Shown here: positions 5,350 through 60,818 of the stretch, piece after piece | Position numbering within the stretch: position 1 is the stretch's first letter | Layout: each line of letters begins with the position of its first letter | Source: Betaproteobacteria bacterium | Lineage (GTDB): Bacteria > Pseudomonadota > Gammaproteobacteria > Burkholderiales > Ga0077523 | DNA: 64,000 nucleotides | Direction of reading: 5' to 3' | NCBI GenBank assembly: GCA_016713305.1 | Contig: JADJPK010000007.1 | Coordinates: 197,829-261,828, forward strand | Translations under genes and position numbers: made by a program | Notes under the pieces: generated by a model | The model's database searches: none | What the model saw: the letters and a program-made list of their open reading frames with translations, nothing else | Told to the model about the DNA's origin: nothing

Positions 5350-5401
5350 GACGTCTTCCCGGAGACTGGCCCTGGGGAGGAGAACCGATCCTCCCTGAGG
5401 G

Positions 5402-6916: not shown

Positions 6917-6962
6917 CGGAGCCGTGTGCGGTGGGCGAAAGGGGTGTTCGGGCGAGCGGACG

Positions 6963-8067: not shown

Positions 8068-8210
8068 GATGTGAGGGTGCCGCAGGCAGTTCGGGGAAAC
8101 GCCGATTTTAGCCTGCGGCGCGCGATTCACCTAGGGAAGCCGTGAGTCATGCGCATGCCGCGACTCAGGCACTGCGGGTGGAAGATGCGAAGTTCCGTGC
8201 CGCCGGGTTC

Positions 8211-11373: not shown

Positions 11374-13371
11374 ATGACCCCGAACAAGAAAACGCGCATC
11401 TCCACGCAGGTGAGCCTGCTGGCCTGCGGCATCTTCATCGCAGCCATCGTCGGCATCTCCCTGCTCGCGTATCTGCGCGCGTCCAGCATCTTCGACAGCC
11501 GGGGCGCCACGGAACTGGGGGCGAGGCTCAAGCTGATCGAAAGCCAGTTCGAGACCTTCGACGCCACGGCCAAATCCAACGCGGACCGCCTGAGCCACGT
11601 CTTCGAGTCCATGCTGGGCGGGAACGTCAGGGTCGACCCGGGCCGCACCATCCAGGTGGGCGAGCACGCATCGCCCGCAGTGACGGCCAATTCGGGCACG
11701 CTCAATCTGGATTTCTCCCAGGTGGACGGGTTCAGCCGCATGACCGGGGGCACGGCGACGGTGTTCGTGCGCATGGGCGACAACTTCCTGCGCGTGACGA
11801 CGTCGGTCAAGAAGCAGGACGGCAGCCGCGCCCTGGGCACCTTGCTGGATACCAAGCATCCTGCCTTTCCGCGCATGCTGGAAGGCACGCCCTATCTGGG
11901 CAAGGCGAGCCTGTTCGGGCGCGACTACATGACCAAGTACAGCCCCGTGAAGGATGCCGGCGGCCGCACGGTCGCCATCCTGTTCGTGGGTTTCGACATC
12001 ACGGAAGGCCTCGCCAAGCTGCATTCGGAGATCGGTGCGGCGCGGATCGGCGAGAAAGGGCACTACTTCGTCATCGATGCGTCCCAGCAGGCCTCCCGCG
12101 GCGAACTGGTGGTTCATCCGGAGGCGAAGGGAAAGAACGTGAGCGGAGGCGGCCTCGAGGCCTACGCGGACATCCTGCAGCAAGGGCAAGGAGCCCTGGA
12201 AAAGGATGGGCGTCTCTACGTGTTCACGAAGCTCGATTCCTGGCAGCGCATCTTCGGGGCATCGGTCGATCTGGGCGAACTGCACTCCGACGCCGTCGTC
12301 CTGGGCAACCTTCTGGGCGGCCTGGGCCTGGCGGTCATTCTCGCCGGCTGTGCCGCCATCTACTTTTCGCTGCACAGGAAACTCCGGCCGCTCGAATTGC
12401 TGGCGCGCGATGCGGAGCGGTTCGGCTCGGGCGATCTCACGGTGCGCTCGCAAGTCAGCAGCGCGGACGAGGCGGGTGAACTGGCCCGGGCCTTCAACGG
12501 CATGGCCGACCAGGTCCGCGACCTCGTCGTCCGTGTGAAGCGTGCGTCCGACAGCGTGCGCGAGGCGGTCGTCCTGGTCCGCAACGAGTCGCGGCACGTG
12601 CTGGACGGTTCGCGCACCCAGAGCGAGTCGGCCTCCCGCGTCGCGGCGGCGCTCGAGGAAGTCAATGCCAGTCTCACCGGTGTGACGGACAACGCGCAGG
12701 ACTCGCGCGAGCTTTCGCAGAAGACGAACCAGCTGTCGGTGCAGGGCGAAGCCGTCGCACTGAAAGCGGCCGACGAGACGGCCGCCATCGCGACATCCGT
12801 ACGCGCGTCAGCGCAGGCGATCGCATCGCTCAACATGCGCTCGGAACAGATCAGCGACGTGGTCAAGGTGATCAAGGACATCGCAGATCAGACCAATCTG
12901 CTCGCGCTCAACGCGGCCATCGAGGCGGCGCGAGCCGGGGAGCAGGGCCGCGGGTTCGCGGTGGTGGCCGACGAAGTGCGCAAGCTGGCCGAACGCACGA
13001 GCCACGCGACCATCGAGATCGGCACCATGATCTCGGCCATCCAGAAGGAGACATCGGATGCCGTCACAGGCATGCGCGGGGGATCGGAACGCGTCGAGGA
13101 GGGCGTGCGCCTGGTGAAGGAGGCCGTCGATGCGCTGACCGAGATCCGCACCGCAGCCGAGATGGCCGTGGCCAAGTCGGCGGAGATCTCGCTGGCGATG
13201 AACGAGCAGAGCGTGGCCGGCACAGAGATCGCCACCAACGTGGAGCGCATCGCCCGCATGGCGGACGAGAACAGCGCCGCCGCAGCGCGGAGTCAGGAAT
13301 CCGTGAGCCGCCTCGAAGCGCTCGCCAGCGATCTCACCGCCCTCACTGCGGGTCTCAAGGTGGGAACGTAA
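11374..13371 (+). CDS. Methyl-accepting chemotaxis protein with periplasmic Cache-type (Cache_3-Cache_2-like) sensor, HAMP and MA domains
   Basis: Lies inside ORF 11023..13371. Start at ATG 11374 ([31 protein letters not shown]; alternative 11347). Cache-like [49 protein letters not shown]. Signalling tip [41 protein letters not shown]. No C-terminal pentapeptide. Confidence 0.9.
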
Positions 13372-21270: not shown

Positions 21271-21529
21271 ACCGGGCCGCGCCCACGGGGCGCGGGTCCG
21301 GGCCTCGTCGGTCGTTCCGTTCCCGATTGTCCCCCGGCAGAAATGCCGAGGGTTTCGCTGCGTGCCGAGATGGTGCGTCCGCGAGCCTTCCTCTGCGGGC
21401 CGCCGGTCGTCCCCTCAAGCAACGCGGCGGCCGACCGGAGTTCATGGACGCGTTTCGGGCCTGACCTTCTCATTGCTTTCGCCATGGATTTCCGGCCGGA
21501 ATGTGAGGAGTCCGCCGTTCTGCGCCGTC

Positions 21530-21556
21530 TCAAGTTCATTTCCCTGTTTCCGTTAA
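21530..21556 (+). promoter_or_regulatory. Candidate sigma-28 (FliA) promoter TCAA-N15-TCCGTTAA
   Basis: Compared with the enteric consensus TAAA-N15-GCCGATAA: exact 15-nt spacer and 6/8 match in the -10 element. It ends 81 nt upstream of ATG 21637. Confidence 0.4.
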
Positions 21557-21636
21557 GAGACTCGCACGACCGCGAGAACACCCCCGGATGCGCCGGGGCG
21601 GTTCGTCGTGCGAACGCCACAGAACAAACTGGATAC

Positions 21637-22833
21637 ATGAACTCGACGAACCATTCGGTACCGCGGAGGCCTCGGCCGATACTCGTAGGGACGGCGTGCG
21701 TGGGGGCGGCCCTCACGGCAGCGTGGTTTCTGCTCAATTTCAGTCCCTTCGCGGCGGTGATCGTCGCGGCGGCCGGCACTGCCGCACCCTGGGTGTGGCA
21801 CGCGTTCCGAACGCCGTTGGATGCCCATTCGTCGCGTTCCGAGGAGCATCGGGACTCCGGCAACGTCCCGCTCGGCGATGCGCTTGCCAGGATGGGGACG
21901 GCCACGACACGTCTGCTCGAAGGGTCCGATGACGAGTTGCGCAGGATCGACGGGCTGGTGTCGGATGCCATCCCGGACCTCATCAAGAGCTTCAGCGACA
22001 TCACGGCCCAGGCCAAGCGCCAGCAGGAACTCACCCTGGCGGCGGCCAACAGCGACGAGATGCGCGCGCGGTTCCACGGATTCGTTGCAGAGGCTTCCAG
22101 CACGCTCCAGCAGTACGTCGACCGGCTGGTGGAAGGCAGCCGCTCGGGCATGGAACTGGTCGAGCAGATGGAAAACATCGAGAGCCGGGTGAAGGATGTC
22201 ACGGGCTTCCTGGACGAGATCGACTCCATCGCCAAGCAGACGAATCTTCTCGCGCTCAACGCGGCCATCGAGGCCGCCCGCGCGGGCGAGGCAGGGCGCG
22301 GATTCGCCGTGGTCGCCGACGAAGTGAGGACGCTCTCCGGCCGCACCGCGACCTTCAGCCGGCAGATCCTGGATCAGATGAAGGGCATCGAGGTGGAGAT
22401 CCAGCGTGCCGACGAACGCATCAACGCCATGGCGTCGCAGGACATGGTGTCTGCACTCGGCGCCAAGTCCAATGTCGAGACGGCGCTGAACGAGCTGGGC
22501 GACGCCAACATGGCGATGAACGACTCGGCCGCGGAAGTCTCCCGCATCGCCGGCGAACTGGAGCACACGGTCAACGCCGCGGTCACGAACCTTCAGTTCC
22601 AGGATCTCACCACCCAGCTGATCGGCCACGCCCGTCACCAGAACGAGGCGATCCGCGAACTGCTGGCGCACATCACGCAGGTCGGCGGCGCTCTGGCCGA
22701 CGACAGCTTTGCTTCCCAGGCGGGTTCCCTGCTCGCCGAATTCGATCAGCGGCTCACAAGAGCGCAGGCGGCCGCCGAGCGCACTCCGGTACGGCAGCAA
22801 GGCATGGATACCGGGGCCGTGGAACTGTTTTGA
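21637..22833 (+). CDS. Membrane-anchored MCP-signalling-domain protein without periplasmic sensor or recognisable HAMP
   Basis: Lies inside ORF 21343..22833. Start at ATG 21637 (MNSTNHS..). Two closely spaced TM helices ([19 protein letters not shown] / [17 protein letters not shown]). Tip motif [40 protein letters not shown]. Located directly upstream of cheY-cheA. Confidence 0.85.
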
Positions 22834-23247: not shown

Positions 23248-25500
23248 ATGAGCTTCGACATGGGGCAGTTCACGCAGGTGTTCTTCGACGAGGCCAAGGA
23301 GCACATCGCGACCATCGAGGAGGTCCTTCTCCGGCTCGACCTCGTCGAACCGGGTCTGGAAGATCTCAACGCGATCTTCCGCGCGGCGCACTCCATCAAG
23401 GGCGGGGCCGGCACGTTCGGGTTTGCCGACATGGCGGATTTCACCCACGTCGCGGAGACGCTCCTCGACAGGCTGCGCAAGCAGGAGCTGAAGCTGACCG
23501 CCGCCATGGTGGATGCGCTGCTCGAGTCGAACGATGTGATCAAGTCCATGCTGGAGGCGCACCAGAACGGGGGTGAGGCCGACGGTGCGATCGAGCAGGA
23601 AGTGCGAGGGCGCCTGGAAGCGCTGTCGTCCGGGGAAGCACCGAGCGCCGAGCCAGTACGGTCTTCGGGCGCCGTCGCCCGGCCGCGCGAAGCACGCCGT
23701 TTCGTGATCCGGTTTCCCCACGCCAACGTGAGCTCCGATCAGGCGCTCGCCAATCTCCTCGCCGAGCTGAGGGCCCTGGGCACTCTGCATGTGGTTGAAC
23801 AGCCCGCGCCCGGGCGTACTGAACCGGATGCACGCTGGGAACTGGTCCTCGACACCACTGCGGAGCGTGCCGAACTGGTGGATCTGTTCGATTTCGTCCT
23901 GTCGCCCTCGCGGCTGGAACTGGACGAAGTGGAAGCAGGCGCGGATATCCCCGGTGTGGCGCAGGCGGGTGATGAGGGCTTCGGCTTCTTCGAGGAAGCG
24001 GCAGGCGCTCCGCCGAAGGAAGAAGGTTTCGGCTTCTTCGACGATGCCGCCGGCGCACCCGTCCAGGAGGCCGGTTTCGGCTTCTTCGACAATGCACCGG
24101 GCACCGCGTCGCAGGCCGGGGATTCCGCGGAGCGAAACCAGCCTTTCGGTTTCTTCGACGGTGCGCCGGGCGAGCCGGGCACGTCGACGCAAGCGGAACC
24201 GGCGTCTTCGAACGCGGCCACTCCCGCGCGCCGGGCCACCGATGCCTCGGGCAAGTCCGACGCACCGGCGGGTCGACGCGCGACGGACAAGGCGGCCGCA
24301 GCGGCCGCCAGTGGCGACACCTCGATCCGCGTGAGCGTGGAAAAGGTCGACCAGCTCATCAATCTGGTGGGCGAGCTGGTGATCACCCAATCGATGCTCG
24401 CCCAGGCCGTGATGCGTGCCGACCTGGCGGTGGACGACACGCTCGTGAATGGCATCGCACAGCTGGAGCGCAACTCCCGCGATCTGCAGGAGGCGGTGAT
24501 GTCCATCCGCATGCTCCCGATCGCCTTCGTGTTCAGCCGCTTTCCGCGGCTGGTGCGCGACATCGCGGGCAAGCTCGGCAAGAACGTCGATCTCAAGCTG
24601 GTAGGCGAGCAGACGGAACTGGACAAGGGCGTGATCGAGAAGATCGCGGACCCCCTGACCCATCTGGTGCGCAACAGCCTGGACCACGGGCTGGAGAGCG
24701 CAGCCGACCGCGAGGCCGCCGGCAAGCCGGCCAAGGGGACCATCACGCTGCGGGCCTTCCATCAGGGCGGCAACATCGTCATCGAAGTGGCCGACGACGG
24801 CAGGGGGCTCGACCGGGAGAAGATTCTCGCCAAGGCCCGGTCGCGCGGCATGCCGGTGGACGATTCGATGAGCGATGCCGAGGTTTTCGGGCTCATCTTC
24901 GAGGCGGGCTTTTCCACGGCCGAACAGGTCACGGACATCTCCGGCCGCGGTGTCGGCATGGACGTCGTGCGCCGGAACATCATGGCACTCGGCGGACGTG
25001 TCGACATCGCGAGCCAGCTGGGCAAGGGCTGCACGGTGTCGATCCGGCTGCCGCTCACGCTGGCCATTCTCGATGGCATCTCGGTGGCCGTGGGAGATTC
25101 GCTGTACATCGTGCCGCTGGGATTCATCGTGGAGTCCCTGCAGCCGCAACAGACCGACATCCGGACCATCGCGGGCTCCGGACTCGTCATGCAGGTAAGG
25201 GGCGATTACCTCCCTGTCGTGAGGCTGCACGACGAGATGGGTGTCACGCCGAAGATCCGGGAATTCCACCGCGGCATCACTGTCATCATTGAATCCGACG
25301 GGGCAAGAGCAGCGATGTTCGTCGACGAACTGGTGGGGCAGCACCAGGTGGTCATCAAGAGTCTGGAGAGCAACTACCGCAAGGTGCCGGGGATCTCCGC
25401 CGCCACGATCATGGGAGACGGCAGGGTCGCGATGATCCTGGATGTCGCTCACATCGTGCGCAAGGCCACTTCGAAGAAGGAGTATCAGGAAGCCGCTTGA
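23248..25500 (+). CDS. cheA: Chemotaxis histidine kinase CheA
   Basis: 750 aa. Hpt/P1 ([16 protein letters not shown]), a P2-like segment, an acidic GFGFF repeat linker, P3 dimerisation domain, HATPase ([10 protein letters not shown]-boxes) and a CheW-like P5 domain. Confidence 0.95.
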
Positions 25501-25603: not shown

Positions 25604-27995
25604 ATGAAAGCACTGAGTATCAAAGTGCGGTTTGCAGTGGCAGGGCTGGTCATGCTTGCGGGCATGAGCGCGATCGGGGTGCTGGGCTTGCAGGGCATGT
25701 TCAGCGCAAAGGAAGGATTGCGGACGGTCTACGAGGACCGGGTGGTTCCCCTGAAACAGCTGAAGCATGTCGCGGATGCCTACGCCGTCAGCGTGATCGA
25801 CGCCGTGAACAAGGCCAACGCCGGTCTTGCCAGTGCCGAGGAAACCCTCAAGGCTGTCGATACCGCCCAGACCGACATCAAGCGGGAATGGGGACAGTAC
25901 GCTGCGACGTTCATGACTCCCGACGAGAAGAAGCTGGCCGGGGAAGTGAACGCGACCATGGCGGTGGCCGATGCCTCGGTGCTTGAACTGGAGAAGTTCC
26001 TCCAAGGCAAGACCGGATCGCTCAAGGGAGCGCTCGGTGCCTTCGATGGTCCGCTCTATGCCACGGTCGATCCGGTAGGCGGAAAGATCAGTGACCTGGT
26101 GGAACTGCAACTGCGGGTCGCACAGGAGAATTACAGCGCGGCTGTAGCCGACTACGGCCACAAGCGCACGGTCGTGATCGCGATCGGTGGGGTGGTGGCG
26201 GTCCTGGCGGTCGTCATCGGATTCTTCCTGTACCGGAACATCGTACCGCCCATTGTGCGGCTGGCCGGTCAGATGCGCGAGATCACGGCTGGGAACACCG
26301 AACTGGAGGTGGACAGCGACCGCCGGGATGAGCTCGGTGAGGTCGTGAGCGCCTTCCGGGATCTGTTCGGCAAGGTGCGCAGCGATCTCGCGGAAGCGCA
26401 GCAGCGTGCGACGGTGAACGAACGCATTCGCCAGGCACTGGACAGCGCCAGCACCAACGTGATGGTGGCCGACACGGACGGCAAGATCGTGTTCATGAAC
26501 AAGTCCGTCACGGAGATGCTCGGCCGCAACGAAGCGGAGCTCAGGACGCAACTGCCCGGGTTCAGCGTGAACGCAGCCCTGGGCGCCAACTTCGATGCGT
26601 TCCATCGGAATCCTTCCCACCAGCGCAACCTGCTCGCCGCGCTGCAGACGACGCACCGCACGCAGATCAAGGTGGGACCGCTCACCTTCGCGCTTACCGC
26701 CAATCCCATCGTGGATGGCGAAGGCAGGCGCATCGGAACGGTCGTGGAGTGGAACGACCGGACCATGGAAGTACGGGTCGAAGAAGAGATCGGTCGCGTC
26801 GTGTCGGCGGCAGCATCCGGTGACTATTCGCAGCGGGTTCCCGAAGACGGAAAGAGCGGTTTCTTCCTGCAGATGGCGCAGGGACTCAACCGGATCGTGG
26901 GTGTCTCGGAAAGCGGCATCGGCGAGGTGGGCCGGGTGTCGAGAGCCGTTGCCTCCGGCGATCTCACGCAGAAGGTCACCGGAGACTTCGACGGGCAGTT
27001 CGCGGAGCTGCAGGCGGATTCCAACGCGACGAACGAGCGTCTGCGGGAGGTGATTGGTCAGATCCGGGAGTCTGTGGAGTCGATCACGACGGCGTCGAAG
27101 GAGATAGCGGCTGGGAACACGGACCTGTCTGGGCGGACGGAGGAGCAGGCGTCGAGTCTGGAGGAGACGGCGAGCTCGATGGAGGAGTTGACGTCGACGG
27201 TGAAGCAGAACGCGGAGAACGCGCGTCAGGCGAACCAGTTGGCGATCGGTGCCTCGGACGTTGCGGTGCGTGGTGGGGATGTGGTGAGGGAAGTGGTGCA
27301 GACGATGGGAGGGATCAGCGAGAGCAGCAAGAAGATTGCGGACATCATCTCGGTGATCGACGGGATTGCGTTCCAGACGAACATTCTGGCGCTGAACGCG
27401 GCGGTGGAAGCGGCGAGGGCAGGGGAACAGGGACGAGGTTTGCGGTGGTGGCGACGGAGGTGAGGAATCTGGCGCAGAGGAGTGCGGGGGCGGCGAAGGA
27501 GATCAGGGAGCTGATCTCGGACTCGGTGGGGAAGGTGGAGTCGGGAGCCGGCTGGTGGACGAGGCGGGGAGGACGATGGAAGAGATCGTGGTGTCGGTGA
27601 AGAGGGTGACGGACATCATGGCGGAGATCACGGCGGCGTCGGTGGAGCAGAGTGCGGGGATCGAGCAGGTGAACCAGGCGATCACGCAGATGGACGAGGT
27701 GACGCAGCAGAATGCGGCGCTGGTGGAGCAGGCGGCGGCGGCGGCGGAGAGTCTGGAGGAACAGGCGCAGATGCTGTCGCAGGCGGTGTCGGTGTTCAAG
27801 CTGGGACAGGAGGCGGAGGGGTGGGACGGGAAGGCGGAGCGGCGCGGGCCGGACCGTGCGAAGAACGTGGCGCGGCTGCCGAAAGCGGAAGGAGCGAAAG
27901 GGGCGAAGCCGGCGGCCAAGCCGAAGTCGCTGGGTGCTCCGGCGGCGAAGGTGGTGGGTGGAGATGCGGCGACCGACGAGTGGCAAGAGTTCTGA
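25604..27995 (+). CDS. MCP 'A': 4-helix-bundle (TarH-like) periplasmic sensor, HAMP, PAS, MA domain, C-terminal EWQEF; frame-disrupted as assembled (2 shifts)
   Basis: Start ATG 25604 ([29 protein letters not shown]), inside ORF 25442..27463. The protein continues through a short middle frame into ORF 27555..27995. Compared with paralog copies, single Gs are missing at 27437-27438 (GGG->GG) and 27543-27545 (GGGG->GGG). Confidence 0.88.
27035..27995 (+). repeat. MCP signalling-domain DNA cassette, copy A (long form including linker, EWQEF and stop)
   Basis: Near-identical at the DNA level to 33096..34057. The central part also matches 30235..30974 and 35333..36025. Confidence 0.9.
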
Positions 27996-28335: not shown

Positions 28336-31149
28336 TTGAAGTTGTTCCAGAAACTGAGCAATGCAGGTGTCGGGTTCAAGCTGACGGGCGTGGCCGTCAT
28401 CGCCGTGGGCGTGGTCATGGGATCGCTCGCGTGGCTGATCGGGAATTCGGCGCGCGATGCCATGGACGAGGGGGCGCTCGAGCGCCTCAAGATCGAACTC
28501 AACATGACGGTCGATCTGCTCTCCAACTATGGCGAGCGCCTGGACACCGAGGCAGAGCACCTCATGTCGGTGATCAGATCCCAATATTCCGGCAGCTTCT
28601 CGGCGGACTTGCGTCATCCAGCGGCCGTGGGCGGCCGGTCCGTCCCCGCATTGGTCAATGGCGGGCGGGTGCTGAACGGAGAACACCGCAATCTGGATAC
28701 GCTCCGCGACACGACCCACGCCGTCGCAACGCTCTTCGTTCACGACGGCCAGGACTTCGTGCGGGTGGCGACCTCCCTGCGCGACAAGGAAGGCAACCGG
28801 GTTTCCGGAACGCCGCTGGACCGCAACAGCCCTGCCTACGCCGCGCTGTCGGCCGGGCAGTCCTTCCGTGGCCATGCCGAACTGTTCGGCCGCGAGTACG
28901 TCACCCGCTACGAGCCGCTCAAGTCGGCTGACGGCCGCATTGCAGGCGCCTTGTTCGTGGGACTCGACATCAGTGACGAACTGGCCGCGGTGAAGAAGCG
29001 CATCCGCAGCGTGAAGGTCGGCGAGACCGGCTACATCTATGCGCTGGATGCATCGCCCGGACCGCACTACGGTTTTGCGACGATCCATCCGGCCAAGGAA
29101 GGCCTGAGCCTGCTTGCGGCCAAGGATGCGAATGGCCACGAATTCATCAAGGAGATCGTGGAGAAGCGCGAAGGCGTCATCCACTATCCCTGGTTCAATC
29201 CGGAACTGGGCGACAAGGCGCCGCGCGACAAGATCGTCGTGTACGGGCCCGTGAAGTCGTGGAACTGGGTGGTCGGGGTGGGCAGCTACTCGGACGAGTT
29301 CTCCCGGAGCGCCTCGATGCTTCGCAACCGTGTCTTCATGGTGGCGGGCGCCGGACTCGTCCTGCTGGGCCTGGCACTGTTCTTCGCCATCCGGCAGGTG
29401 ATCGTCAAGCCTCTGGGCAAGGCCGTGGCGGCGGCGGAAGAGATCGCCGGCGGCAATCTCAATCACGAGGTGGAAAGCGACAGCCGAGACGAAGTGGGGT
29501 CCCTGCTGACGGCATTGAACGACATGCGGGTGAAGCTCCTCGAGCGCATCGAAGCCGATCAGCGCGTTTCACGAGAGGCCCTCAGGGTGAAGGTCGCGCT
29601 CGATGGTTCCGCCACGCCGGTCCGCATCGCGGACAACGAGGGCACGCTGCTGTACATCAACGAGGCGATGCGCCGGACGCTCAAGCAGATCGAGCCCGAG
29701 ATGCGCCGGAAGCACCCCGATTTCTCCGCCGAGACACTCGTGGGCAAGAGCGTCGGCGTGTTCTACGACGATCCGAAGGCGGCGTTGGCCCGCCTGGCCA
29801 GTCTCAGCGGTCTCGTCCGTACGGACATGGTCATCGGCGGCCGGGATTTCGAGATCACCACGACACCGATCATGGACGCGAACGGAGTGCGTCTGGGCAG
29901 CGTCGGAGAATGGTCGGACCGCACGGACCAGCGACGTGCGGAACGGGAGATCCAGAGTTCGGTGCAGGCCGCTGCAGGGGGAGACTTCTCCCGCCTGGTA
30001 CCTCTCGACGACAAACAGGGCTTCCTGCGGCAGATGGCCGAGGGGCTCAACCAGATCATGCAGTCCTGCGATACCAATCTTGCGGGCGTCGCGACGGTGC
30101 TCGACGGCCTCGCCGGGGGCGATCTCACCAAGCGTGTCGATGGCGCGTTCGAGGGACGCTTCGCCAGTCTCCAGGAGGACACCAACGTCTCGATGGATCG
30201 GCTCGGCGAAGTCGTGAGCCAGATCCGCGATTCGGTGGAGTCGATCACGACGGCGTCGAAGGAGATAGCGGCTGGGAACACGGACCTGTCTGGGCGGACG
30301 GAGGAGCAGGCGTCGAGTCTGGAGGAGACGGCGAGTTCGATGGAGGAGCTGACGTCGACGGTGAAGCAGAACGCGGACAACGCGCGTCAGGCGAACCAGT
30401 TGGTGGTGGGGGGCGTCGGAAGTGGCGCAGCGTGGTGGGGATGTGGTGAGGAAGTGGTGCAGACGATGGGAGGGATCAGCGAGAGCAGCAAGAAGATTGC
30501 GGACATCATCTCGGTGATCGACGGGATTGCGTTCCAGACGAACATTCTGGCGCTGAACGCGGCGGTGGAAGCGGCGAGGGCAGGGGAACAGGGACGAGGG
30601 TTTGCGGTGGTGGCGACGGAGGTGAGGAATCTGGCGCAGAGGGAGTGCAGGGGCGGCGAAGGAGATCAAGGAGCTGATCTCGGACTCGGTGGGGAAGGTG
30701 GAATCAGGGAGCCGGCTGGTGGACGAGGCGGGGAGGCGATGGAAGAGATCGTGGTGTCGGTGAAGAGGGTGACGGACATCATGGCGGAGATCACGGCGGC
30801 GTCGGTGGAGCAGAGTGCGGGGATCGAGCAGGTGAACCAGGCGATCACGCAGATGGACGAGGTGACGCAGCAGAATGCGGCGCTGGTGGAGCAGGCGGCG
30901 GCGGCGGCGGAGAGTCTGGAGGAACAGGCGCAGATGCTGTCGCAGGCGGTGTCGGTGTTCAAGCTGGGACAGGAAGGGGAAGGTCGGGACGGGAGCGCGC
31001 AACGGCGTGGGCCGGAGCGTTCCACGAATGTCGCGAGGTTGCCCAAAGCCGAAAAGGTCAAACCCGCCAGACCCGCCGCACTCAGCGCGCCGAAATCCCG
31101 GGTGGTCAATGCGAGGTCGGGATCGGACGAGGAATGGGAAGAGTTCTGA
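28336..31149 (+). CDS. MCP 'B': Cache_3-Cache_2-like periplasmic sensor, HAMP, PAS, MA domain, C-terminal EWEEF; contains two compensated frameshift pairs
   Basis: ORF 28267..31149 (960 aa). Likely TTG start at 28336 ([27 protein letters not shown]), with AAGGA upstream. Cache motifs: [52 protein letters not shown]. Two segments, 30413-30450 and 30643-30737, translate to nonsense relative to the paralogs. Confidence 0.88.
30235..30974 (+). repeat. MCP signalling-domain DNA cassette, copy B
   Basis: Identity starts at GTGGAGTCGATCACGACGGCG and ends at AAGCTGGGACAGGA. Confidence 0.9.
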
Positions 31150-31475: not shown

Positions 31476-34057
31476 ATGACCCGCCTCTTGAACAGGCTTT
31501 CCCTCCGAGCCAAATTCGTGGTGATCGGCGTCGTGGCCTCCGCCGCCATGCTCACCGCACTGGGCTTCCTGCTCAGCACCCTGCAGGAGTCCATCGCGTT
31601 CTCGGCCAAGGAAAGGCTCGGTATCGAATACCACAAGCCCCTGCGGCATCTCCTCGAGAAGATCGCCGTGGCCCAGGGTGACCCCGCGGCCCGGGAGGCA
31701 GTCAAGCCTGCCATCGCAGCCGTGGATGCGGTCCACGAAAGACTCGGGGGCACGCTGGACATCGGCGATCGGTGGAAGAACGTCAAGACGCAATGGGACA
31801 GCGTTGTGTCCGCGGACGCATCTGCCGATCTCAAGCCGGTGGCCACGGCAGTCGCAGCGCTCATGGACCATGTCGGCAACACGTCGAACCTCATTCTCGA
31901 TCCGGACCTGGACTCGTTCTACCTGATGGATATCGCGGTGGCGCGCATACCGCACGCGGTGGAGAAGCTCCTCTTGCTGCGCGACGGCGGTGGTGAAGTC
32001 GTGGCGGCCCGCAAGATGACGGGTGAACAACGGACGCTGCTTTCGACCACGGCAGGTGTGGCGGTCGGCTTTCGCGAAGCGATCCAGGCGTCCCTCGACA
32101 CGGCGGTCGGAAACAACGGAACGCTTGCGGGGCTGCGCGCGAAGCATGACGACCTTGCCCGGGCGACCGACACGTTCTTCGGTCTGGTTCAGAAGGATCT
32201 GCTGAGCGCGGAACGTCTGGAGCTGGCACCGGCACGCTATTCGGAAGCTGCCCATGGGGCGATCGCCACGAACTTCGCCTTCTACGACGCGGTGGCCCCG
32301 GGATTGGACGGCCTGCTCGAGGCCCGGGTCGCGAAGCTTTCGTGGAAGAGAAACCTGCTTGCGGGAATCGTGCTCGCGCTGATGGCGTTCGCCGGATTCC
32401 TCGCGCGCGTCGTTCTCAACGATATCCTGAGAAATGCCGCAAAGGCGGCCGATGCTGCCGACCGGTTGTCCCGTGGAGACATGGAGTTCGACGTTGCGGC
32501 CAATACCCGAGACGAACTGGGCGCGATGCTGAACTCCATGGCCGCGATGAAGCGGACGGTTCAGCGTTACGTCGATGGACAGATCGAACTGGGCCGTCAG
32601 CACGAGGCAGGGATGATCGCCTACCGGCTCGATCCTCAGGAATTCGAGGGTGCGTACCGTGACATGGCAACCCGCACCAACGCAGCGGTCCAGACGCACA
32701 TCGAAGTGACCCGGCAACTGGTCGCCGTTCTGGACAAGTACGCCCACGGTGACTTCCATGTCGACATGACTCCCCTTCCCGGCGAACTGGGCGCCGTCTC
32801 CGAAGCTGCGGCACGCGCCAAGCGCAACATGGTCGACATCAGCGGGGAGATTCAGACGCTGGCGGACGCGGCGGGGCGCGGCGAGTTCCAGGTGCGCGGT
32901 GATACCGGGCGCTATCACGGTACCTATCGCCAGATGGTCGAGGGGATGAACCGCTTGATGGAGACGGCCGATCGCGGTGTGACGGAGGTCGGGCGCGCGC
33001 TGCAGCAGCTCGCCCGGGCGGATCTGTCCCATTCGGTGTCCGGGGATTTCCAGGGCCAGTTCCGGCAGCTTCAAGACGATGCGAACCAGTCGACGGAGCG
33101 TCTGCGGGAGGTGATTGGTCAGATCCGGGAGTCTGTGGAGTCGATCACGACGGCGTCGAAGGAGATAGCGGCTGGGAACACGGACCTGTCTGGGCGGACG
33201 GAGGAGCAGGCGTCGAGTCTGGAGGAGACGGCGAGCTCGATGGAGGAGCTGACGTCGACGGTGAAGCAGAACGCGGACAACGCGCGTCAGGCGAATCAGC
33301 TGGTGGTGGGGGCGTCGGAAGTGGCGCAGCGGGGTGGGGATGTGGTGAGGGAAGTGGTGCAGACGATGGGGGGATCAGCGAGAGCAGCAAGAAGATCGCG
33401 GACATCATCGGGGTGATCGACGGGATTGCGTTCCAGACGAACATCCTGGCGCTGAACGCGGCGGTGGAAGCGGCGCGTGCAGGCGAGCAGGGACGAGGGT
33501 TTGCGGTGGTGGCGACGGAGGTGAGGAATCTGGCGCAGAGGAGTGCAGGGGCGGCGAAGGAGATCAAGGAGCTGATCTCGGACTCGGTGGGGAAGGTGGA
33601 GTCGGGGAGCCGGCTGGTGGACGAGGCGGGGAGGACGATGGAAGAGATCGTGGTGTCGGTGAAGAGGGTGACGGACATCATGGCGGAGATCACGGCGGCG
33701 TCGGTGGAGCAGAGTGCGGGGATCGAGCAGGTGAACCAGGCGATCACGCAGATGGACGAGGTGACGCAGCAGAATGCGGCGCTGGTGGAGCAGGCGGCGG
33801 CGGCGGCGGAGAGTCTGGAGGAACAGGCGCAGATGCTGTCGCAGGCGGTGTCGGTGTTCAAGCTGGGACAGGAGGCGGAGGGGTGGGACGGGAAGGCGGA
33901 GCGGCGCGGGCCGGACCGTGCGAAGAACGTGGCGCGGCTGCCGAAGGCGGAAGGAGCGAAAGGGGCGAAGCCGGCGGCCAAGCCGAAGTCGCTGGGTGCT
34001 CCGGCGGCGAAGGTGGTGGGTGGAGATGCGGCGACCGACGAGTGGCAAGAGTTCTGA
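31476..34057 (+). CDS. MCP 'D': unclassified helical periplasmic sensor, HAMP region(s), MA domain, C-terminal EWQEF; frame-disrupted as assembled (1 shift)
   Basis: ORF 31476..33416 ([33 protein letters not shown]..) joins ORF 33413..34057. One base is lost at 33368-33373 (ATGGGAGGGATC in the paralogs versus ATGGGGGGATC here). Confidence 0.88.
33096..34057 (+). repeat. MCP signalling-domain DNA cassette, copy D (long form)
   Basis: Identity with copy A starts at GAGCGTCTGCGGGAGGTGATTGG and runs to the stop codon. The copies diverge within a few nt after TGA. Confidence 0.9.
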
Positions 34058-34249: not shown

Positions 34250-36121
34250 ATGGGCAGTGGCAGTGGCAGCAGCGGTGGAAGGAGCGGTGGCATGGGCAAC
34301 AGCAGTGATGGCGGTAACGGCCGTGGCGGCGGCTGGTTCGGTCGGTCAAGGAAGAAAACCATCGAAGCGGGAGGCCGGCGCTTCGATGCAGACGAAGTGT
34401 GGGAGATGTGGGCGCGCCTCGAGGCGCTGAGTCGATCCCAGGCCGTCATCGAATTCACGCCGGAAGGCGAAGTCCTGAAGGCGAACTCCAACTTTCTCTC
34501 GGTCATGGGCTATCCGCTCGAGGACATTCAGGGGCGGCACCATCGCATGTTCGTCGAGCCGTCCTATGCGCAGAGCCCGGACTACGCGCAGTTCTGGGAA
34601 GGCCTGCGCAAGGGCGAGTTCAGGGCGGGACTCTTCAAGCGTATCGGCAGCGGCGACAGGGAAGTCTGGATCCAGGCGAGCTACAACCCGGTTCTGGACT
34701 CGAGCGGCCGGGTCCTCAAGATCGTCAAGTACACCACCGATGTCACGGCGGAGCAGGAGCGCACTGCACACGCGGCGGCCAAACTGCAGGCGATCGACCG
34801 GTCGCAAGGCGTCATCGAGTTCGATCTCGACGGCCGTATCGTCTCGGCGAACCGCAATTTTCTCGATGCACTGGGCTACTCCCCGGGGGAGATCGCTGGC
34901 CAGCATCACGCCATGTTCGTGGAGCCGGCCGAGCGGCAGAGCGATGACTACCGGAGGTTCTGGGAAAAGCTGCGTCGTGGCGAGTTCGACTCGGGCAAGT
35001 ACAAGCGCGTGGGCAAGGGCGGCCGCACGGTGTGGATTCAGGCGACCTACAACCCGGTTCTCGATGCGTCGGGCAGGCCGGTGAAGGTCGTGAAGTTCGC
35101 CCAGATCATCACGGAGCAGGTGGAGGCGGCCCAGGCCACCGAGCGCGCAGTGGCGGACGTCATGCGGATCGTCTCGGCGGCTGCGAACGATGACCTCAGC
35201 CTGCGCATCGATTGCCAAGGCAAGTCGGGAGAGTTCGAGACCCTGTGCGCGGGAGTCAACCGACTCATGGATACGATGTCCGATGTCGTCGGCCGGATGC
35301 GGGATGCCTCGGACGTCATCACCACCAGCGCCAAGGAGATAGCGGCTGGGAACACGGACCTGTCTGGTCGGACGGAGGAGCAGGCGTCGAGTCTGGAGGA
35401 GACGGCGAGTTCGATGGAGGAGCTGACGTCGACGGTGAAGCAGAACGCGGACAACGCGCGTCAGGCGAACCAGTTGGTGGTGGGGGCGTCGGAAGTGGCG
35501 CAGCGTGGTGGGGATGTGGTGAGGGAAGTGGTGCAGACGATGGGAGGGATCAGCGAGAGCAGCAAGAAGATTGCGGACATCATCTCGGTGATCGACGGGA
35601 TTGCATTCCAGACGAACATTCTGGCGCTGAACGCGGCGGTGGAGGCGGCGAGGGCTGGGGAGCAGGGACGGGGATTTGCGGTGGTGGCGACGGAGGTGAG
35701 GAACCTGGCGCAGAGGAGTGCGGGGGCGGCGAAGGAGATCAAGGAACTGATCTCGGACTCGGTGGGGAAGGTGGAGTCGGGGAGCCGGCTGGTGGACGAG
35801 GCGGGGAGGACGATGGAAGAGATCGTGGTGTCGGTGAAGAGGGTGACGGACATCATGGCGGAGATCACGGCGGCGTCGGTGGAGCAGAGTGCGGGGATCG
35901 AGCAGGTGAACCAGGCGATCACGCAGATGGACGAGGTGACGCAGCAGAATGCGGCGCTGGTGGAGCAGGCGGCGGCGGCGGCGGAGAGTCTGGAGGAACA
36001 GGCGCAGATGCTGTCGCAGGCGGTGGTGGCGTTCAAGCTGGAACAGGAGAGCCAGGACACGGGTCCCCTGCAGCGCCGCCGTGCGGCGTCGACGCACCGC
36101 ATCGCGGTCCAGGCGGCTTGA
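34250..36121 (+). CDS. MCP 'E': soluble receptor with Gly/Ser-rich N-terminus, two PAS domains and MA domain, no pentapeptide
   Basis: Lies inside ORF 34088..36121. Start at ATG 34250 ([28 protein letters not shown]). No TM segment visible. The PAS-like unit is duplicated ([45 protein letters not shown], then [45 protein letters not shown]). Confidence 0.9.
35333..36025 (+). repeat. MCP signalling-domain DNA cassette, copy E
   Basis: Identity starts at AAGGAGATAGCGGCTGGGAACACGG and ends at ..CTGTCGCAGGCGGTG. Confidence 0.9.
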
Positions 36122-36205
36122 TGTCTCTTCCTCGGAGGCGCCGCTGCCGGCAGCCCATGCTGCCCGGAGACGACCCGCCTTTCGGGGCAGCGCAGGTGAG
36201 GAGTG

Positions 36206-36232
36206 TCAAGTTGGCAGCGGCGAAGCCGCTAA
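36206..36232 (+). promoter_or_regulatory. Candidate sigma-28 promoter TCAAGTTG-N11-GCCGCTAA
   Basis: TCAA-N15-GCCGCTAA, a 7/8 match to GCCGATAA. It ends 82 nt upstream of cheW ATG 36314. Confidence 0.5.
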
Positions 36233-36313
36233 CTCCCCGGAGAGCCGGGTGATGGCCGCTGCCAAGGCATCGGCGAAGGACGCCACCGTTCAGATCGCGG
36301 GAAAGGGAACGCA

Positions 36314-36823
36314 ATGAAAACAGATACGAAAGACAGTCTTGCCAAGGGATCGATCGAGGCAGCCCAGGCGGCCGGAGAATTCCTGACGTTCCGGTTGGGG
36401 GAAGAGGAGTACGGGATCGAGATCCTGAAGGTGCAGGAGATCCGGGGTTACGATGCCGTGACGACCATTGCCAACGCACCCTCGTTCATCAAGGGCGTCA
36501 TCAACCTGCGGGGGGTCATCGTGCCCATCGTGGACCTTCGCATCAAATTCGGGGTCGGCCAGGCCGACTACAACCAGTTCACCGTCGTCATCGTGCTCAA
36601 CGTGGGCAGCCGCGTCGTCGGCATCGTGGTCGACAGCGTCTCGGACGTGATGACCCTCACGTCGGAGCAGATCAAACCGGCGCCGGAATTCTCGTCCAGC
36701 TTCGACACGCGCTATCTCACCGGCATCGGCGCGATCGACGATCGCATGCTGATCCTCGTGGACATCGAACGGCTGATGCTGTCCTCGGACATGGCGCTGG
36801 TCGACGAAGCGGCCGCGGCCTAG
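36314..36823 (+). CDS. cheW: Chemotaxis coupling protein CheW
   Basis: 169 aa. [25 protein letters not shown] and [15 protein letters not shown] are classic CheW motifs. Confidence 0.93.
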
Positions 36824-37741
36824 ATGGCCACCGTCCAGTCCGGAACGCGCTCAGGCACCGTCGATCCGAAACAGCTGGCCGCGCAGTTCGCGGCCTCGCG
36901 TGACGCGTCGCGCGAGTTCGAATACACCCCCGCGGACTTCGAGGCCGTGCGCGCACTCATCTACAAGCGTGCCGGCATCTCGCTGTCGCCGGTGAAGGCG
37001 GACATGGTCTACAGCCGTCTCGCCCGGCGGCTGCGTGCGCGGGGCATGAAGCGCTTCTCCGAGTACATCGACTATCTCCGCGGCGGCGGCGACGACGAGG
37101 AGTGGGAGGCGTTCACGAACGCGCTCACCACGAACCTCACATCGTTCTTTCGCGAGGAGCATCACTTCCCGATCCTCGCGAATCATCTGCAGAGCCTGCG
37201 TGGACGCAATCCGTCCATCTGGTGCTGCGCATCGTCCACGGGCGAGGAACCCTACTCGCTCGCGATGACGGCGGTGGAGGCGTTCGGCAGCTTCAACATT
37301 CCGGTCAGCATTCTCGCTTCGGACCTGGATACGAACGTGCTGGCCAAGGCGCGGGCGGGTGTCTATCCGGCCGAGCGCATCGAACGGTTGTCGGCAGAAC
37401 GGGTGAAGCGCTTCTTCATGCGCGGTACGGGTGCCCAGGAAGGTCTCGTCAAGGTCCGCCCGGAACTGGCCAAGCTGGTGTCGTTCAAGCAGATCAATCT
37501 GCTGTCCAGCCCGCTCCCCGTGCAAGGACAATTCGATGCGGTGTTCTGCCGGAACGTGATGATCTACTTCGACAAGGCGACGCAGGCTTCGATCCTGAGA
37601 CGCTTCGTCCCTCACATGAATCCCGATGCGCTCCTGTTCGTGGGCCACTCCGAGAGCCTCTTCCACGTGTCGGACGTCTTTCATCTGCGAGGCAAGACCG
37701 TCTACGACCTGGTGAAAGGGGGAGGGGCGAATGTCGTTTGA
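36824..37741 (+). CDS. cheR: Chemotaxis protein methyltransferase CheR
   Basis: 305 aa. TTNLTSFFREEHHF, SAM-binding IWCCASSTGEEPYSLAM, FCRNVMIYFD. The start directly abuts the cheW stop (TAGATG). Confidence 0.93.
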   Translation: MATVQSGTRSGTVDPKQLAAQFAASRDASREFEYTPADFEAVRALIYKRAGISLSPVKADMVYSRLARRLRARGMKRFSEYIDYLRGGGDDEEWEAFTNALTTNLTSFFREEHHFPILANHLQSLRGRNPSIWCCASSTGEEPYSLAMTAVEAFGSFNIPVSILASDLDTNVLAKARAGVYPAERIERLSAERVKRFFMRGTGAQEGLVKVRPELAKLVSFKQINLLSSPLPVQGQFDAVFCRNVMIYFDKATQASILRRFVPHMNPDALLFVGHSESLFHVSDVFHLRGKTVYDLVKGGGANVV

Positions 37742-38348
37742 TGCAGCGCTCGAATCCCTCGCGACCAATCTCTACTTCGACCGGACGTTCGACCGCCATG
37801 CAGTCAAGGTCCTGCCGGGCGAGTTCTACGTCACCGATCGCGACATGGTGCTCGTGACGACGCTGGGCTCCTGCGTGGCCGCGTGCATCCGCGATGCCGA
37901 TCTGGGCATCGGGGGCATCAATCACTTCATGCTGCCCGACACGTCGACGGTCGAGGCGGGCGCGCCAGCTTCGACATCGGCCCGCTACGGGACCTATGCC
38001 ATGGAACTGCTGATCAACGAACTGGTGAAGCTCGGGGCGCGGCGCAAGCACCTGGTCGCGAAAGTGTTCGGCGGAGGCAATGTGCTGGGCAACATGACCG
38101 TCACGAACGTGGGCCAGCGCAACGCGTCCTTCGTGCTGGGGTATCTGTCGATGGAAGGCATCCCCGTGCTGGCCAAGGACCTGCTGGACGAGCATCCACG
38201 CAAGGTCTATTTCTTTCCGCGCACCGGCAAGGTGCTGATCAAGAAACTGCGCAGCGTGCGCAACGAGACCCTGGTGGAGCGCGAGACCGATTACGCGAAG
38301 CGTCTCAAGACGACCCGGGTGTCGGGAGACGTGGAGTTGTTCGCATGA
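37731..38348 (+). CDS. cheD: Chemoreceptor glutamine deamidase CheD
   Basis: 205 aa. [11 protein letters not shown] with the catalytic Cys context, [18 protein letters not shown]. Overlaps cheR by 11 nt. Confidence 0.9.
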
Positions 38349-39451
38349 CGCTGGCCATGCATGCAGCACCGGCGGCAGACCGGAAGATCAGGGTCGTGGT
38401 GGTGGACGATTCGGCCCTGATCCGCTCGGTGCTCAAGAAGCTGCTCGAGACGGCGCCCGACATCGAAGTGGTCGGGGTGGCGTCCGACCCCATCGTGGCA
38501 CGCGAAGTCATTCGCAGCACCGAGCCCGATGTGATCACGCTGGACGTCGAGATGCCGCGCATGGACGGGCTGGAATTCCTGTCGCGTCTCATGCGCCTCA
38601 AGCCGACGCCCGTGGTGATGGTGTCTTCGCTGACCGCGCGCGGCTCCGAAGTGACCTTGCGGGCGCTCGAGCTCGGCGCCGTCGACTTCGTGGCAAAGCC
38701 CAAGTTCGACATCCAGCACGGATTGCAGGAGACCGCGCGCGAGATCGTGGAGAAGGTGAGGGCGGCCTCCCACGCGCGGGTGCGCAAATCGGTGCCGGTG
38801 GAGTCCGGTCCCGCCAATTCCGCGGATGTCGTCCTGCCGGCCACGCTGTCACGCGTCGCGGCCACGGAGAAGGTCATCATCGTTGGCGCGAGCACGGGCG
38901 GAACCGAAGCCATCAAGGCGTTCCTGACCCGGATGCCGGCCGACTGCCCCGGGATTCTTATCGCCCAGCACATGCCCGAGGCTTTCACCAAGTCCTTCGC
39001 CCAGCGCCTGGATGGCCTGTGCCGGATCAAGGTTCACGAAGCCCAGGGTGGCGAGCGGGTACTCCCGGGCCACGCCTTCATTGCACCGGGACACTCGCAT
39101 CTGCTGCTCGCGCGGAGCGGCGCCAACTATGTGACCGAACTGTCCCAGGCCCCTCCCGTCAACCGGCATCGGCCGTCGGTGGACGTACTGTTCCGGTCGG
39201 CCGCGAACGTCGCGGGGCGCAATGCCATGGGCGTGATCCTGACGGGCATGGGCAAGGATGGTGCGGCGGGCATGCTGGAAATGAAGCAGGGGGGAGCCTA
39301 TACGTTTGCGCAGGACGAGGCCTCCTGCGTGGTCTTCGGGATGCCCCGCGAGGCGATCGCGCTGGGCGGAGTCGACGAAGTCGTCCCCCTCGACGACATT
39401 GCGTCCCGGGTGCTGCTGCGCCTGGGCGCGGAGCGCACGATCAGGGTTTAG
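38345..39451 (+). CDS. cheB: Chemotaxis response regulator protein-glutamate methylesterase CheB
   Basis: Lies inside ORF 37883..39451. ATG 38345 overlaps the cheD stop (ATGA). Receiver domain ([21 protein letters not shown]) plus esterase domain ([19 protein letters not shown]). Confidence 0.93.
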
Positions 39452-39887: not shown

Positions 39888-39964
39888 AGGCGCGTAGCTC
39901 AGCTGGTTAGAGCACCACCTTGACATGGTGGGGGTCGTTGGTTCGAGTCCAATCGCGCCTACCA
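39888..39964 (+). tRNA. tRNA-Val (anticodon GAC)
   Basis: Cloverleaf folded by hand. Acceptor AGGCGCG/CGCGCCT, D-arm GCTC..GAGC, anticodon arm CCACC-TTGACAT-GGTGG, T-arm GTTGG-TTCGAGT-CCAAT, encoded CCA. Confidence 0.9.
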
Positions 39965-40076: not shown

Positions 40077-41986
40077 ATGCTTTCGATCCGATTGCCCGAC
40101 GGCGCGACCAAGGAGTTTCCGGGGCCGGTGACGGTCGCCGACGTGGCGGCATCCATCGGACCGGGTCTCGCCAAGGCCGCGATCGCGGGCAAGGTGGACG
40201 GGCGACTGGTGGACCTCTCCTTCCTGGTGGTGAACGACAGCCAGGTCGCCATCGTGACGGGCAAGGATGCCGAAGGTCTGGAGATCATCCGTCACTCCAC
40301 CGCGCATCTTCTGGCCTACGCGGTCAAGGAACTCTTCCCCGATGCCCAGGTGACCATCGGTCCGGTGATCGAGAACGGGTTCTACTACGACTTTTCGTAC
40401 AAGCGGCCCTTCACGCCCGAGGATCTCGCGGTCATCGAGAACCGGATGGCGGAGCTGGCCGGGCGTGACCACGCCGTGAAGCGCGAGGTGTGGAAACGGG
40501 ACGACGCGGTGGCCTTCTTCAAGTCCATCGGCGAGCACTACAAGGCGGAGATCATCGCCTCGATCCCGTCGAACGAGGACATCTCCCTCTACCGCGAGGG
40601 GGACTTCATCGACCTGTGCCGCGGCCCGCACGTGCCGTCGACGGGCAAGCTGAAGGTGTTCAAGCTGATGAAGGTTGCCGGCGCCTACTGGCGCGGCGAC
40701 TCCAAGAACGAGATGCTCCAGCGGATTTACGGGACCGCGTGGGCATCCAAGGCCGACCAGGATGCCTATCTGCACATGCTGGAGGAAGCCGAAAAGCGGG
40801 ATCACCGCAAGCTCGGCCGCCAGCTCGATCTCTTCCACGTGCAGGACGAAGCCCCCGGGATGGTCTTCTGGCATCCCCACGGCTGGACGCTCTGGCAGCA
40901 GGTGGAGCAATACATGCGGCGGATGCTGGCGGCCAACGGCTACCGGGAAGTCCGCACGCCCATGGTCATGGATCGCGCGCCCTCTGGGAACGCTCCGGGC
41001 ATTGGGAAAACTACCGGGAACACATGTTCACGACGTCGTCGGAAAACCGCGACTACGCCGTGAAGCCGATGAACTGCCCGGGCCATGTGCAGATCTTCAA
41101 TCAGGGGCTGCGCAGCTACCGCGATCTTCCCCTGCGGCTGGCCGAATTCGGTGCGTGCCATCGCAACGAGCCGTCCGGTGCCCTGCACGGAATCATGCGG
41201 GTCCGCGCCTTCACCCAGGACGATGCCCACATCTTCTGCCGTGAAGACCAGGTGCAGGACGAGGCGGCCAGCTTCATCGACCTGCTCCAGCGGATCTATG
41301 CGGACTTCGGCTTCCACGAGATCCTGATCAAGCTGTCCACCCGTCCGGAGAAGCGTATCGGCGCGGACGAGACCTGGGATCGCGCCGAGGCGGCGCTCAG
41401 TTCCGCACTGGATGCCAAGGGCCTCCAATGGGAACTCAATCCAGGGGAAGGCGCGTTCTACGGTCCCAAGATCGAGTTTTCCCTCAAGGATTCCATCGGC
41501 CGGGTCTGGCAATGCGGCACCCTGCAGCTCGATTTCGAGCTGCCCGGCCGTCTGGACGCGGAGTTCGTCGACGAGGACAACACCCGCAAGACGCCGGTCA
41601 TGCTGCATCGGGCCATTCTCGGGTCACTGGAGCGTTTCATCGGCATCCTGATCGAGAACTACGCCGGGGCACTGCCCCTGTGGCTCTCGCCAGTGCAGGC
41701 CGTGGTGCTGAACATCTCGGAAGCCCAGCGGGGTTACGCCACCCAAGTGGGGGGGCGGCTGGGGGCCGCAGGCTTCCGCGTCGAAACCGACTTGAGGAAT
41801 GAGACGATTAACCTTAAGATTCGGGAACATAGCTTGAGGAAGCTGCCCTACCAGATCGTCGTCGGCGAAAAAGAGGTCGCTGGGGGTCTGGTGGCAGTTC
41901 GTGCGCGGGGTGGTCAGAACCTGGGGACGATGACACTCGACGAGTTCGAGGCGCGTCTCAGATCGGAACTGCCTGCCGGCGCTTAA
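40077..41986 (+). CDS. thrS: Threonine--tRNA ligase; frame-disrupted as assembled (1 shift)
   Basis: ORF 40077..41063 carries the TGS domain and N-terminal part ([14 protein letters not shown].., [12 protein letters not shown]). ORF 40490..41986 carries the rest (..[18 protein letters not shown], class II core, anticodon-binding domain). The frames change at the CGCGCGCC tract, 40974-40981. Confidence 0.92.
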
Positions 41987-60731: not shown

Positions 60732-60758
60732 TAAAGTTCCCATCGGGCCATCCGAAAA
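60732..60758 (+). promoter_or_regulatory. Candidate sigma-28 promoter TAAAGTTC-N11-TCCGAAAA
   Basis: 7/8 match to TAAAGTTT, exact N11, and 6/8 match to GCCGATAA. Located 61 nt upstream of TTG 60819. Confidence 0.5.
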
Positions 60759-60818
60759 CCGTTCTTGCCGCATGTCCCGCAGAGGCCTGTTTCCGGCACA
60801 CCCACACGGAGGGTTCCC

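Follow-up and report, generated by a model that had tools for sequence, protein, structure and literature searches.

The DNA analysed here is a 64-kb stretch (the window; 65.5% GC) of contig JADJPK010000007.1 from a Betaproteobacteria bacterium, and carries on its + strand a chemotaxis cluster that runs from cheA through four tandem receptor genes to cheW, cheR, cheD and cheB. We found that the four receptors, methyl-accepting chemotaxis proteins (MCPs) 1 to 4, share a signalling module that is written in a codon style of its own, with G at every silent position that permits G, and that the codon switch within each gene marks where unique DNA in genome style meets the homogenised module. The segment at 27035-27995, to which an initial annotation had drawn attention, is copy 1 of this module, that is, the MCPsignal hairpin plus the C-terminal tail common to the four receptors. 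As to its history, we lean towards the view that the G-only dialect was built up in situ in the module lineage and carried into each receptor by conversion.

Host codon usage was taken from the genes of the window, where C- and G-ending four-fold codons are about equally used. The G/(G+C) ratio at four-fold sites was 0.50 +/- 0.04 (range 0.39-0.58) over 25 genes or gene segments elsewhere in the window, a set to which the sensor halves of the same four receptors (0.45-0.54) and three further MCP genes belong; in the module copies it was 0.96-1.00. Copy 4 (35333-36118), for example, has GCC 0 and GCG 40, GGC 0 and GGG 11, CTC 0 and CTG 13, ACC 0 and ACG 15, GTC 1 and GTG 26, and TCC 0 and TCG 12. 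GC skew was 0.35-0.46 in every copy, against about -0.12 to +0.2 elsewhere over 24-38 kb (windows of 300 nucleotides, nt), and the base composition of the copies was G 46%, C 19%, A 21% and T 13%, with 67% purines. The sharp switch in codon usage and strand composition and the almost exclusive G-ending of four-fold families, both read from the letters by the initial annotation, are thus borne out: the module lies outside the spread of the other genes, and the bias does not extend into the sensor parts. Amino-acid composition and codon context were rejected as the cause, since host usage per codon family combined with the following base predicts a G fraction of only 0.48 at 112 core sites, where the probability of finding no C is 2e-36.

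The shift is confined to silent positions. Compared with 196 homologous signalling domains, the module deviates by at most 1.5 standard deviations (sd) at the first two codon positions; position 3 has G at 0.74 (+4.3 sd) and C at 0.14 (-3.0 sd), the homologue means being 0.39 and 0.41. Among two-fold codons, those ending in purine also moved towards G, with GAG at 79% (23/6) versus 58% in the background and CAG (23/0) and AAG (9/0) at 100% versus 88%, and those ending in pyrimidine hold the usual preference for C (GAC 9 and GAT 1, AAC 8 and AAT 1, ATC 12/16). AGG, which like GGG is a rare codon in the host, partly displaces CGN: it makes up 6/15 arginine codons in copy 4 and 5/18 in copy 3, versus 45/778 in the background (Fisher p = 1.7e-4). 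The earlier statement that arginine is mostly AGG therefore holds as an enrichment but not as a majority; the ATA, ATT, TCT, AGT and TTG codons listed with it are present, but at or only slightly above their background frequency. Overall GC of the module (0.63-0.69) equals that of the host.

Several ordinary causes do not fit this pattern. Cytosine deamination was ruled out because T at position 3 stands at 0.076 versus 0.095 in the homologues, GAT and AAT are 1/10 and 1/9, and the switch falls in mid-gene; this last point also disposes of a mutation bias acting on the whole transcription unit. Symmetric GC-biased gene conversion was excluded because C falls (0.14 versus 0.41 at position 3) while G rises, and C over T, at 77% in the module versus 82% in the background, shows no rise. 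Translational optimisation was set aside because the module uses GGG and AGG, which are rare in the host.

The module occupies 27028-27995 in MCP1 (25604-27995), 30234-30974 in MCP2 (28336-31149), 33065-34057 in MCP3 (31476-34057) and 35333-36047 in MCP4 (34250-36121), all on the + strand. In copies 1 and 3 the G-only style begins at the change point and holds as far as the stop codon, with four-fold G/C counts of 58/1 and 70/3 in the former and 46/0 and 104/4 in the latter; copy 2, at least 0.9 identical to each of the other three, has 27 G and 0 C in its first in-frame part, and copy 4 has 112 G and 0 C. Maximum-likelihood change points were placed at 27022/27028, 30228/30234, 33056/33065 and 35332/35344, all within 40 nt of the repeat boundaries 27035, 30235, 33096 and 35333 with which the switch had been said to coincide, and they are the positions where identity between copies starts. 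The abruptness can be read along MCP2, whose successive four-fold sites (G or c) are ccccGcccccGcccccGGcccGc, then 28 G. By Pfam, MCP1 consists of a 4HB/TarH sensor, HAMP, PAS, HAMP_2 and MCPsignal, MCP2 of a Cache_3-Cache_2 sensor, HAMP, PAS_4, HAMP_2 and MCPsignal, MCP3 of an N-terminal sensor without family assignment, HAMP, HAMP_N3, HAMP_2 and MCPsignal, and the cytoplasmic MCP4 of two PAS domains and MCPsignal, the sensor parts being mutually unrelated. MCPsignal (PF00015) was matched with E = 3e-58 in MCP4, 1e-41 in MCP2, 3e-45 in the 3' piece of MCP3, and 1e-26 and 1e-9 in two pieces of MCP1, and the conserved hairpin-tip sequence of MCP signalling domains is present in the module. Differences between strains and between copies lie mostly at third positions, which identifies the signalling-domain frame as the selected one; the module protein is under purifying selection in that frame.

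Over 0.75-0.96 kb the copies share 96-100% of their nucleotides, and identity in the flanks is 0.2-0.6. They are more alike than orthologues are, the closest relative among the matches listed (locus L088) sharing 87% nucleotide identity. Their identity is arranged in mosaic tracts: in alignment columns, copy 1 equals copy 3 at 91-270 and 601-1050, copy 1 equals copy 2 at 361-480, and copy 2 equals copy 4 at 211-300. The ends of the tracts differ gene by gene. Copy 1 is identical to copy 3 from about 27037 through the stop codon. MCP2 continues past the converted tract in a tail (30975-31149, +) that is homologous to the one of copies 1 and 3, the two sharing a final EW-x-EF motif (EEWEEF in MCP2, DEWQEF in the other); this MCP2 tail has an identity to copy 3 of 0.3-0.77 and is in host style (8 G and 12 C). 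Similarly, the signalling-helix segment of MCP4 at 35185-35332 is unique and in host style, whereas the homologous codons of copies 1-3 are in G style, and the unique tail of MCP4 (36048-36121, +) has host-like codons (8 G and 5 C) and an identity to the other copies of at most 0.47. Since the MCP2 tail and the first helix of MCP4 are in host style outside the tracts, the dialect belongs to the converted DNA and not to the protein domain itself. Strain variants of copy 4 carry alleles seen in copies 1-3 of the window, the polymorphisms being mostly at third positions, which indicates that conversion is ongoing. The greater likeness of copies than of orthologues and the ragged mosaic tracts together support concerted evolution of the module by gene conversion, and the proposal that the cassette had spread among receptors stands.

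A sequencing or assembly artefact, or an overlapping gene that imposes the G periodicity from another frame or strand, is effectively refuted. The assembly does contain indel errors. Seven single-base indels are present in G runs of copies 1-3 or next to them: two deletions break the frame of MCP1 (after 27436 and 27542), one deletion that of MCP3 (after 33370), which is restored by one inserted base, and four indels in MCP2 (30408, 30449, 30641 and 30736) cancel pairwise, a compensation made possible because the frame beginning at codon position 3 has no stop codons; the reading frame of MCP4 is intact. The threonyl-tRNA synthetase gene thrS (40077-41983, +) is likewise split at about 40976-40980, residues 1-301 and 300-635 lying in different frames relative to the orthologue on L169. 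As this gene is essential and single-copy, the indels of copies 1-3 are most likely assembly errors in repeats and not pseudogenisation, and we regard the frameshifts as probably uncorrected errors. The window CheW, however, recurs on 16 metagenome contigs, from activated sludge and other sources. Two short-read (Illumina) contigs of megahit type, L081 and L084, extend into copy 4, which they match at about 99%, and have 0 C against 98-112 G at four-fold sites; the same module and bias on independent contigs from other samples mean that the G bias is no assembly artefact. Across the module, the frame that begins on codon position 3 is open (ORF, open reading frame, 35212-36252, +, and likewise in the other copies), and there are long antisense ORFs as well. 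Yet the alternative-frame products are of low complexity (G/E/D/A or R/L/H/P), as by-products of NNG codons, the antisense ORFs reach far past the module, as is usual at 65% GC, and polymorphisms between strains and copies cluster at third positions of the MCPsignal frame. Exact-sequence look-ups of the four MCP products returned no record, and a homology search with MCP2 no protein of the same species; CheA (MBK8016856.1) and CheR (MBK8016859.1) have two protein accessions between them.

To place the style among relatives, we assembled about 200 signalling domains from 168 fetched loci among the matches listed. Their four-fold G fraction averaged 0.46 (sd 0.10, 99th percentile 0.74, minimum 0.29). 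Among the matches listed, all the high values belong to the closest relatives and are limited to the signalling part, the sensor parts of the same genes being at 0.3-0.55. The fraction is 0.82 in L088 (91% amino-acid identity to the module), 0.84 in L090, whose contig end is a second identical copy of 119 nt, and 0.65-0.90 in L169, an MCP2 orthologue that adjoins cheW-cheR-cheD-cheB on a contig starting inside a preceding module; it is 0.69-0.74 in the three tandem copies of L089, 0.6-0.79 in the solo gene of L170 and 0.65 in L087, a single-copy cluster gene, and L171 and L172 have a mild bias. In this comparison the bias rises stepwise towards the lineage of the window. Identity to the window in CheW, CheR and CheD is 80, 72 and 68% for L169 and 69, 62 and 61% for L087, with 89% and 88% in the module, respectively. 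As the loci closest in CheW, CheR and CheD are also the closest in the module, the module was inherited together with the che cluster; as five to six related lineages have the same bias in a graded, weaker form (0.65-0.9), the dialect would have arisen in situ in the module lineage.

These comparisons bear on the horizontal acquisition that the initial annotation had proposed, i.e. that the module came from a donor with G-ending codons and then spread among resident receptors. The sharply atypical composition with boundaries inside genes and the conversion-borne spread suit this proposal, and the donor could be unsampled, since the scans gave matches without the source species itself. These scans, run with the module protein, covered GTDB representatives, JGI metagenomes and a search of 5.8 billion proteins, and neither donor-like codon usage nor the source species was recovered among the matches listed. 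Among the approximately 200 listed homologues, just the close relatives with syntenic che clusters approach the bias, which is graded with relatedness; module similarity ranks with that of CheW, CheR and CheD, and overall GC is that of the host. Moreover, mobility genes and att-like ends are absent, no inverted repeats were found, and the boundaries are in frame and differ between copies. To our knowledge, no genome uses GCC 0 and GCG 40. We thus consider acquisition from a donor unlikely as the source of the codon style: what survives of the suggested different origin is a history of the module separate from that of the sensor parts, not horizontal transfer as the cause.

The other option named in the initial annotation, an unusual constraint at the nucleic-acid level, appears viable and is the one we favour. 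Tentatively, and with less confidence than in the build-up in situ itself, we suggest a persistent pressure on the sense strand, either selection or a self-reinforcing drive, that would favour G in the non-template strand and keep the transcript poor in C. One expected consequence concerns R-loops, to which no arrangement is more prone than a purine-rich RNA paired with a pyrimidine-rich template; such a region could in turn feed recombination between copies. The module has the sequence character of an R-loop-forming region, namely a positive skew of 0.35-0.46 across about 0.8 kb with clusters of G (17-27 runs of at least three G per copy, on the non-template strand). A second consequence would be a much less structured mRNA: the predicted minimum free energy of the module was -253.5 kcal/mol, versus -302.6 +/- 9.1 for 60 recodings in host usage (z = +5.4), and other coding segments, at -321 +/- 17 kcal/mol, were also more structured. 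Lastly, Rho prefers C-rich, G-poor RNA (PMC9160355, PMC6144790), and the transcript of the module, with a C/G ratio of 0.4, should be poor in the tracts that Rho needs.

Two sequence motifs within the copies were considered and dropped. A canonical G-quadruplex motif was found by a regular-expression scan at the hairpin-tip codons (ARAGEQGRG) of copy 4 (35652-35673, +) and copy 2 (30578-30600) but not in copies 1 and 3, so that it is no conserved feature of the module. The Escherichia coli Chi octamer, GCTGGTGG, occurs 16 times in the window versus 3.3 expected, nine of them within the copies, with two per module copy, all on the + strand (27551, 27719, 30715, 30882, 33613, 33781, 35788 and 35956). 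It was discarded as a cause because it is a by-product of CTG-GTG-G codons, and the seven octamers outside the copies have no orientation bias.

A number of points weigh against a sense-strand pressure and the in situ account around it. The driver is itself an inference that we hold tentatively, its specific benefit being hypothetical, and the canonical G-quadruplex motif is present in two of the four copies. Selection on a global property of RNA or DNA would be expected to saturate below 100%, and the host-style parts of the same domain outside the tracts suit a process linked to conversion no less than they suit selection on the transcript. The comparison with other genes covers 64 kb of the genome, and the relatives are metagenomic fragments that mostly leave copy number and chromosomal orientation undefined.

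A conversion-linked process of this kind can be specified as non-adaptive, strand-asymmetric biased gene conversion, which we regard as doubtful although several observations suit it. It would require a fixed polarity of the heteroduplex, for example through a nascent lagging strand that switches between tandem copies; if MutS misses C:C, C:T and T:T mismatches but G:G and A:A undergo correction, silent differences from pyrimidine to purine would spread among the copies and the reverse would not. C:C mismatches are indeed weakly repaired. The switch exactly at the tract ends with host style in the homologous segments beyond them, the full saturation (0 C/112) to be expected of a drive, and the use of purine wherever it is synonymous, including AGG for CGN, are all in line with this scheme. 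GC skew of the + strand is +0.02 to +0.05 along the whole window, so that the genes are probably co-oriented with replication, where the model predicts G on the sense strand. However, tandem arrays that are 88-94% identical elsewhere are unbiased, at 0.34-0.51 (L025, L070, L049, L037, L016 and Xanthomonadales loci), some of them with positive local skew, whereas the solo gene of L170 and the single-copy gene of L087 are biased all the same. The gain of G over A (GAG at 79% versus 58%) is not predicted, and no mirror-image C-rich case occurs among the approximately 200 listed homologues. The idea that tandem signalling domains in general have a G bias when homogenised was rejected (Spearman rho -0.19, not significant). 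The four-fold G of signalling domains does correlate with local sense-strand GC skew outside the domain (Spearman 0.46, p = 1e-8, 141 loci), but this ordinary replication-strand effect covers just about 0.39-0.54, and local replication skew was rejected as the cause.

The uniform preference for G-ending codons could also reflect translational control, in which an all-NNG module ties synthesis to tRNAs with C34 or modified U34 (Arg CCU, Gly CCC) whose supply varies, for instance with oxygen. Regulons of biased codons tuned by tRNA modification have been described in other bacteria, every family prefers G, the two-fold ones ending in purine among them, GGG and AGG occur although they are rare in the host, and MCP4 has PAS domains. 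Nevertheless, we think this explanation very unlikely: the enrichment of AGG over CGG has no rationale at the level of tRNA and fits avoidance of C at the level of bases, the bias is uniform over all families, and the same proteins are in host style outside the tracts. The only tRNA genes of the window are tRNA-Val GAC and tRNA-Pro GGG, too few to judge supply.

Returning to the sense-strand pressure that we favour, one speculative form of it takes the immunoglobulin switch regions as a model. In these, transcribed repeats have a non-template strand that is rich in G and contains clusters of G, and the copies recombine with one another. By analogy, R-loops formed on transcription could make the G-only module a self-reinforcing recombination hotspot, which would keep the receptors of one array on an identical module and let new sensor domains be captured; the silent G bias would then be the footprint of the recombination process or its selected cause. 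We consider this analogue improbable. The module resembles switch regions as repeated transcribed DNA with a G-rich non-template strand and recombination between copies, but differs from them in being a protein-coding bacterial sequence, whose R-loops and their part in recombination are hypothetical.

The remaining genes of the cluster are in the ordinary style. The gene for CheA (Hpt, H-kinase_dim, HATPase_c and CheW domains; 23248-25500, +), an ORF with an exact match to its accession, has a four-fold G/(G+C) of 0.51, and cheW, cheR, cheD and cheB (36314-39451, +), recognised by Pfam on homologous contigs, have 0.52-0.54. Scans for Rfam families, promoters and terminators gave no match within or between the receptor genes. 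Three more MCP genes on the + strand of the window (11374-13371, 21271-22833 and 60735-62546) have ordinary C/G usage (0.47-0.55, with 0.47 in that at 11374), and their signalling domains are distant relatives of the module. On the - strand, the ORFs for lysyl-tRNA synthetase (5402-7186) and a release factor (6963-8126) overlap by 224 nt, likely because the lysS ORF runs upstream of the true start. Downstream of the cluster, strain contig L081 matches the window up to tRNA-Val(GAC) and then diverges into a phage-type integrase and a DUF1233 gene (39888-39964 in the window, 4480-5927 in L081), which makes this tRNA gene the site of a strain-variable island. In L171, a small gene of the cytidine/deoxycytidylate-deaminase family (5103-5519; PF00383, MafB19-deam match), probably TadA, lies 1 kb downstream of cheB.

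Codon usage is usually seen as a trait of a genome or of the level of expression, and here a sub-genic module has its own strand-specific dialect, with 0/112 silent C versus about 50% a few codons upstream in the same genes, graded across related lineages. One lesson is that a compositional island within a gene need not signal horizontal transfer. If a drive is at work, biased gene conversion would have a counterpart that treats the two strands differently, and scans based on composition could mistake its effect for selection or foreign origin; if selection is, chemoreceptor genes would be under an unrecognised constraint on RNA or DNA, with R-loops, avoidance of Rho and mRNA structure as candidates.

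In literature searches on chemoreceptor gene conversion, G-ending codons and strand-biased conversion, no account came to light of a module smaller than a gene that has a complete silent-site dialect specific to one strand, although known systems share some of its features. Skews due to deamination linked to transcription or replication also deplete C on the exposed strand, but they yield T, affect whole transcription units and are small, whereas here the bias sets in mid-gene, T does not rise and the place of C is taken by G. In bacterial GC-biased gene conversion, recombination favours the fixation of G and C alike, whichever strand they are on (PMC4450053); this likewise shifts silent-site composition in recombining DNA, yet in the module C is eliminated, G is gained on one strand only and C over T is not boosted. 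Purine loading, or Szybalski's rule, is a genome-wide and mild excess of purines on the mRNA-synonymous strand, found mainly at third positions (PMC3950714, PMC2447400). The module has the same excess on the same strand, chiefly through third codon positions, but with 67% purines and a G/C choice that is 100% G, limited to 0.75-0.96 kb inside genes of a 65% GC genome. A parallel in protein architecture is that of the paralogous chemoreceptors Tlp2, Tlp3 and Tlp4 of Campylobacter jejuni, which have identical signalling domains and divergent sensors (PMC9769880). In both cases receptors of one genome combine an identical cytoplasmic module with distantly related ligand-binding parts, which implies homogenisation and compatibility with one CheA/CheW array; unlike the C. 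jejuni receptors, for which no strand-specific synonymous bias is reported, those described here carry a G-only style that ends exactly at the tract borders.

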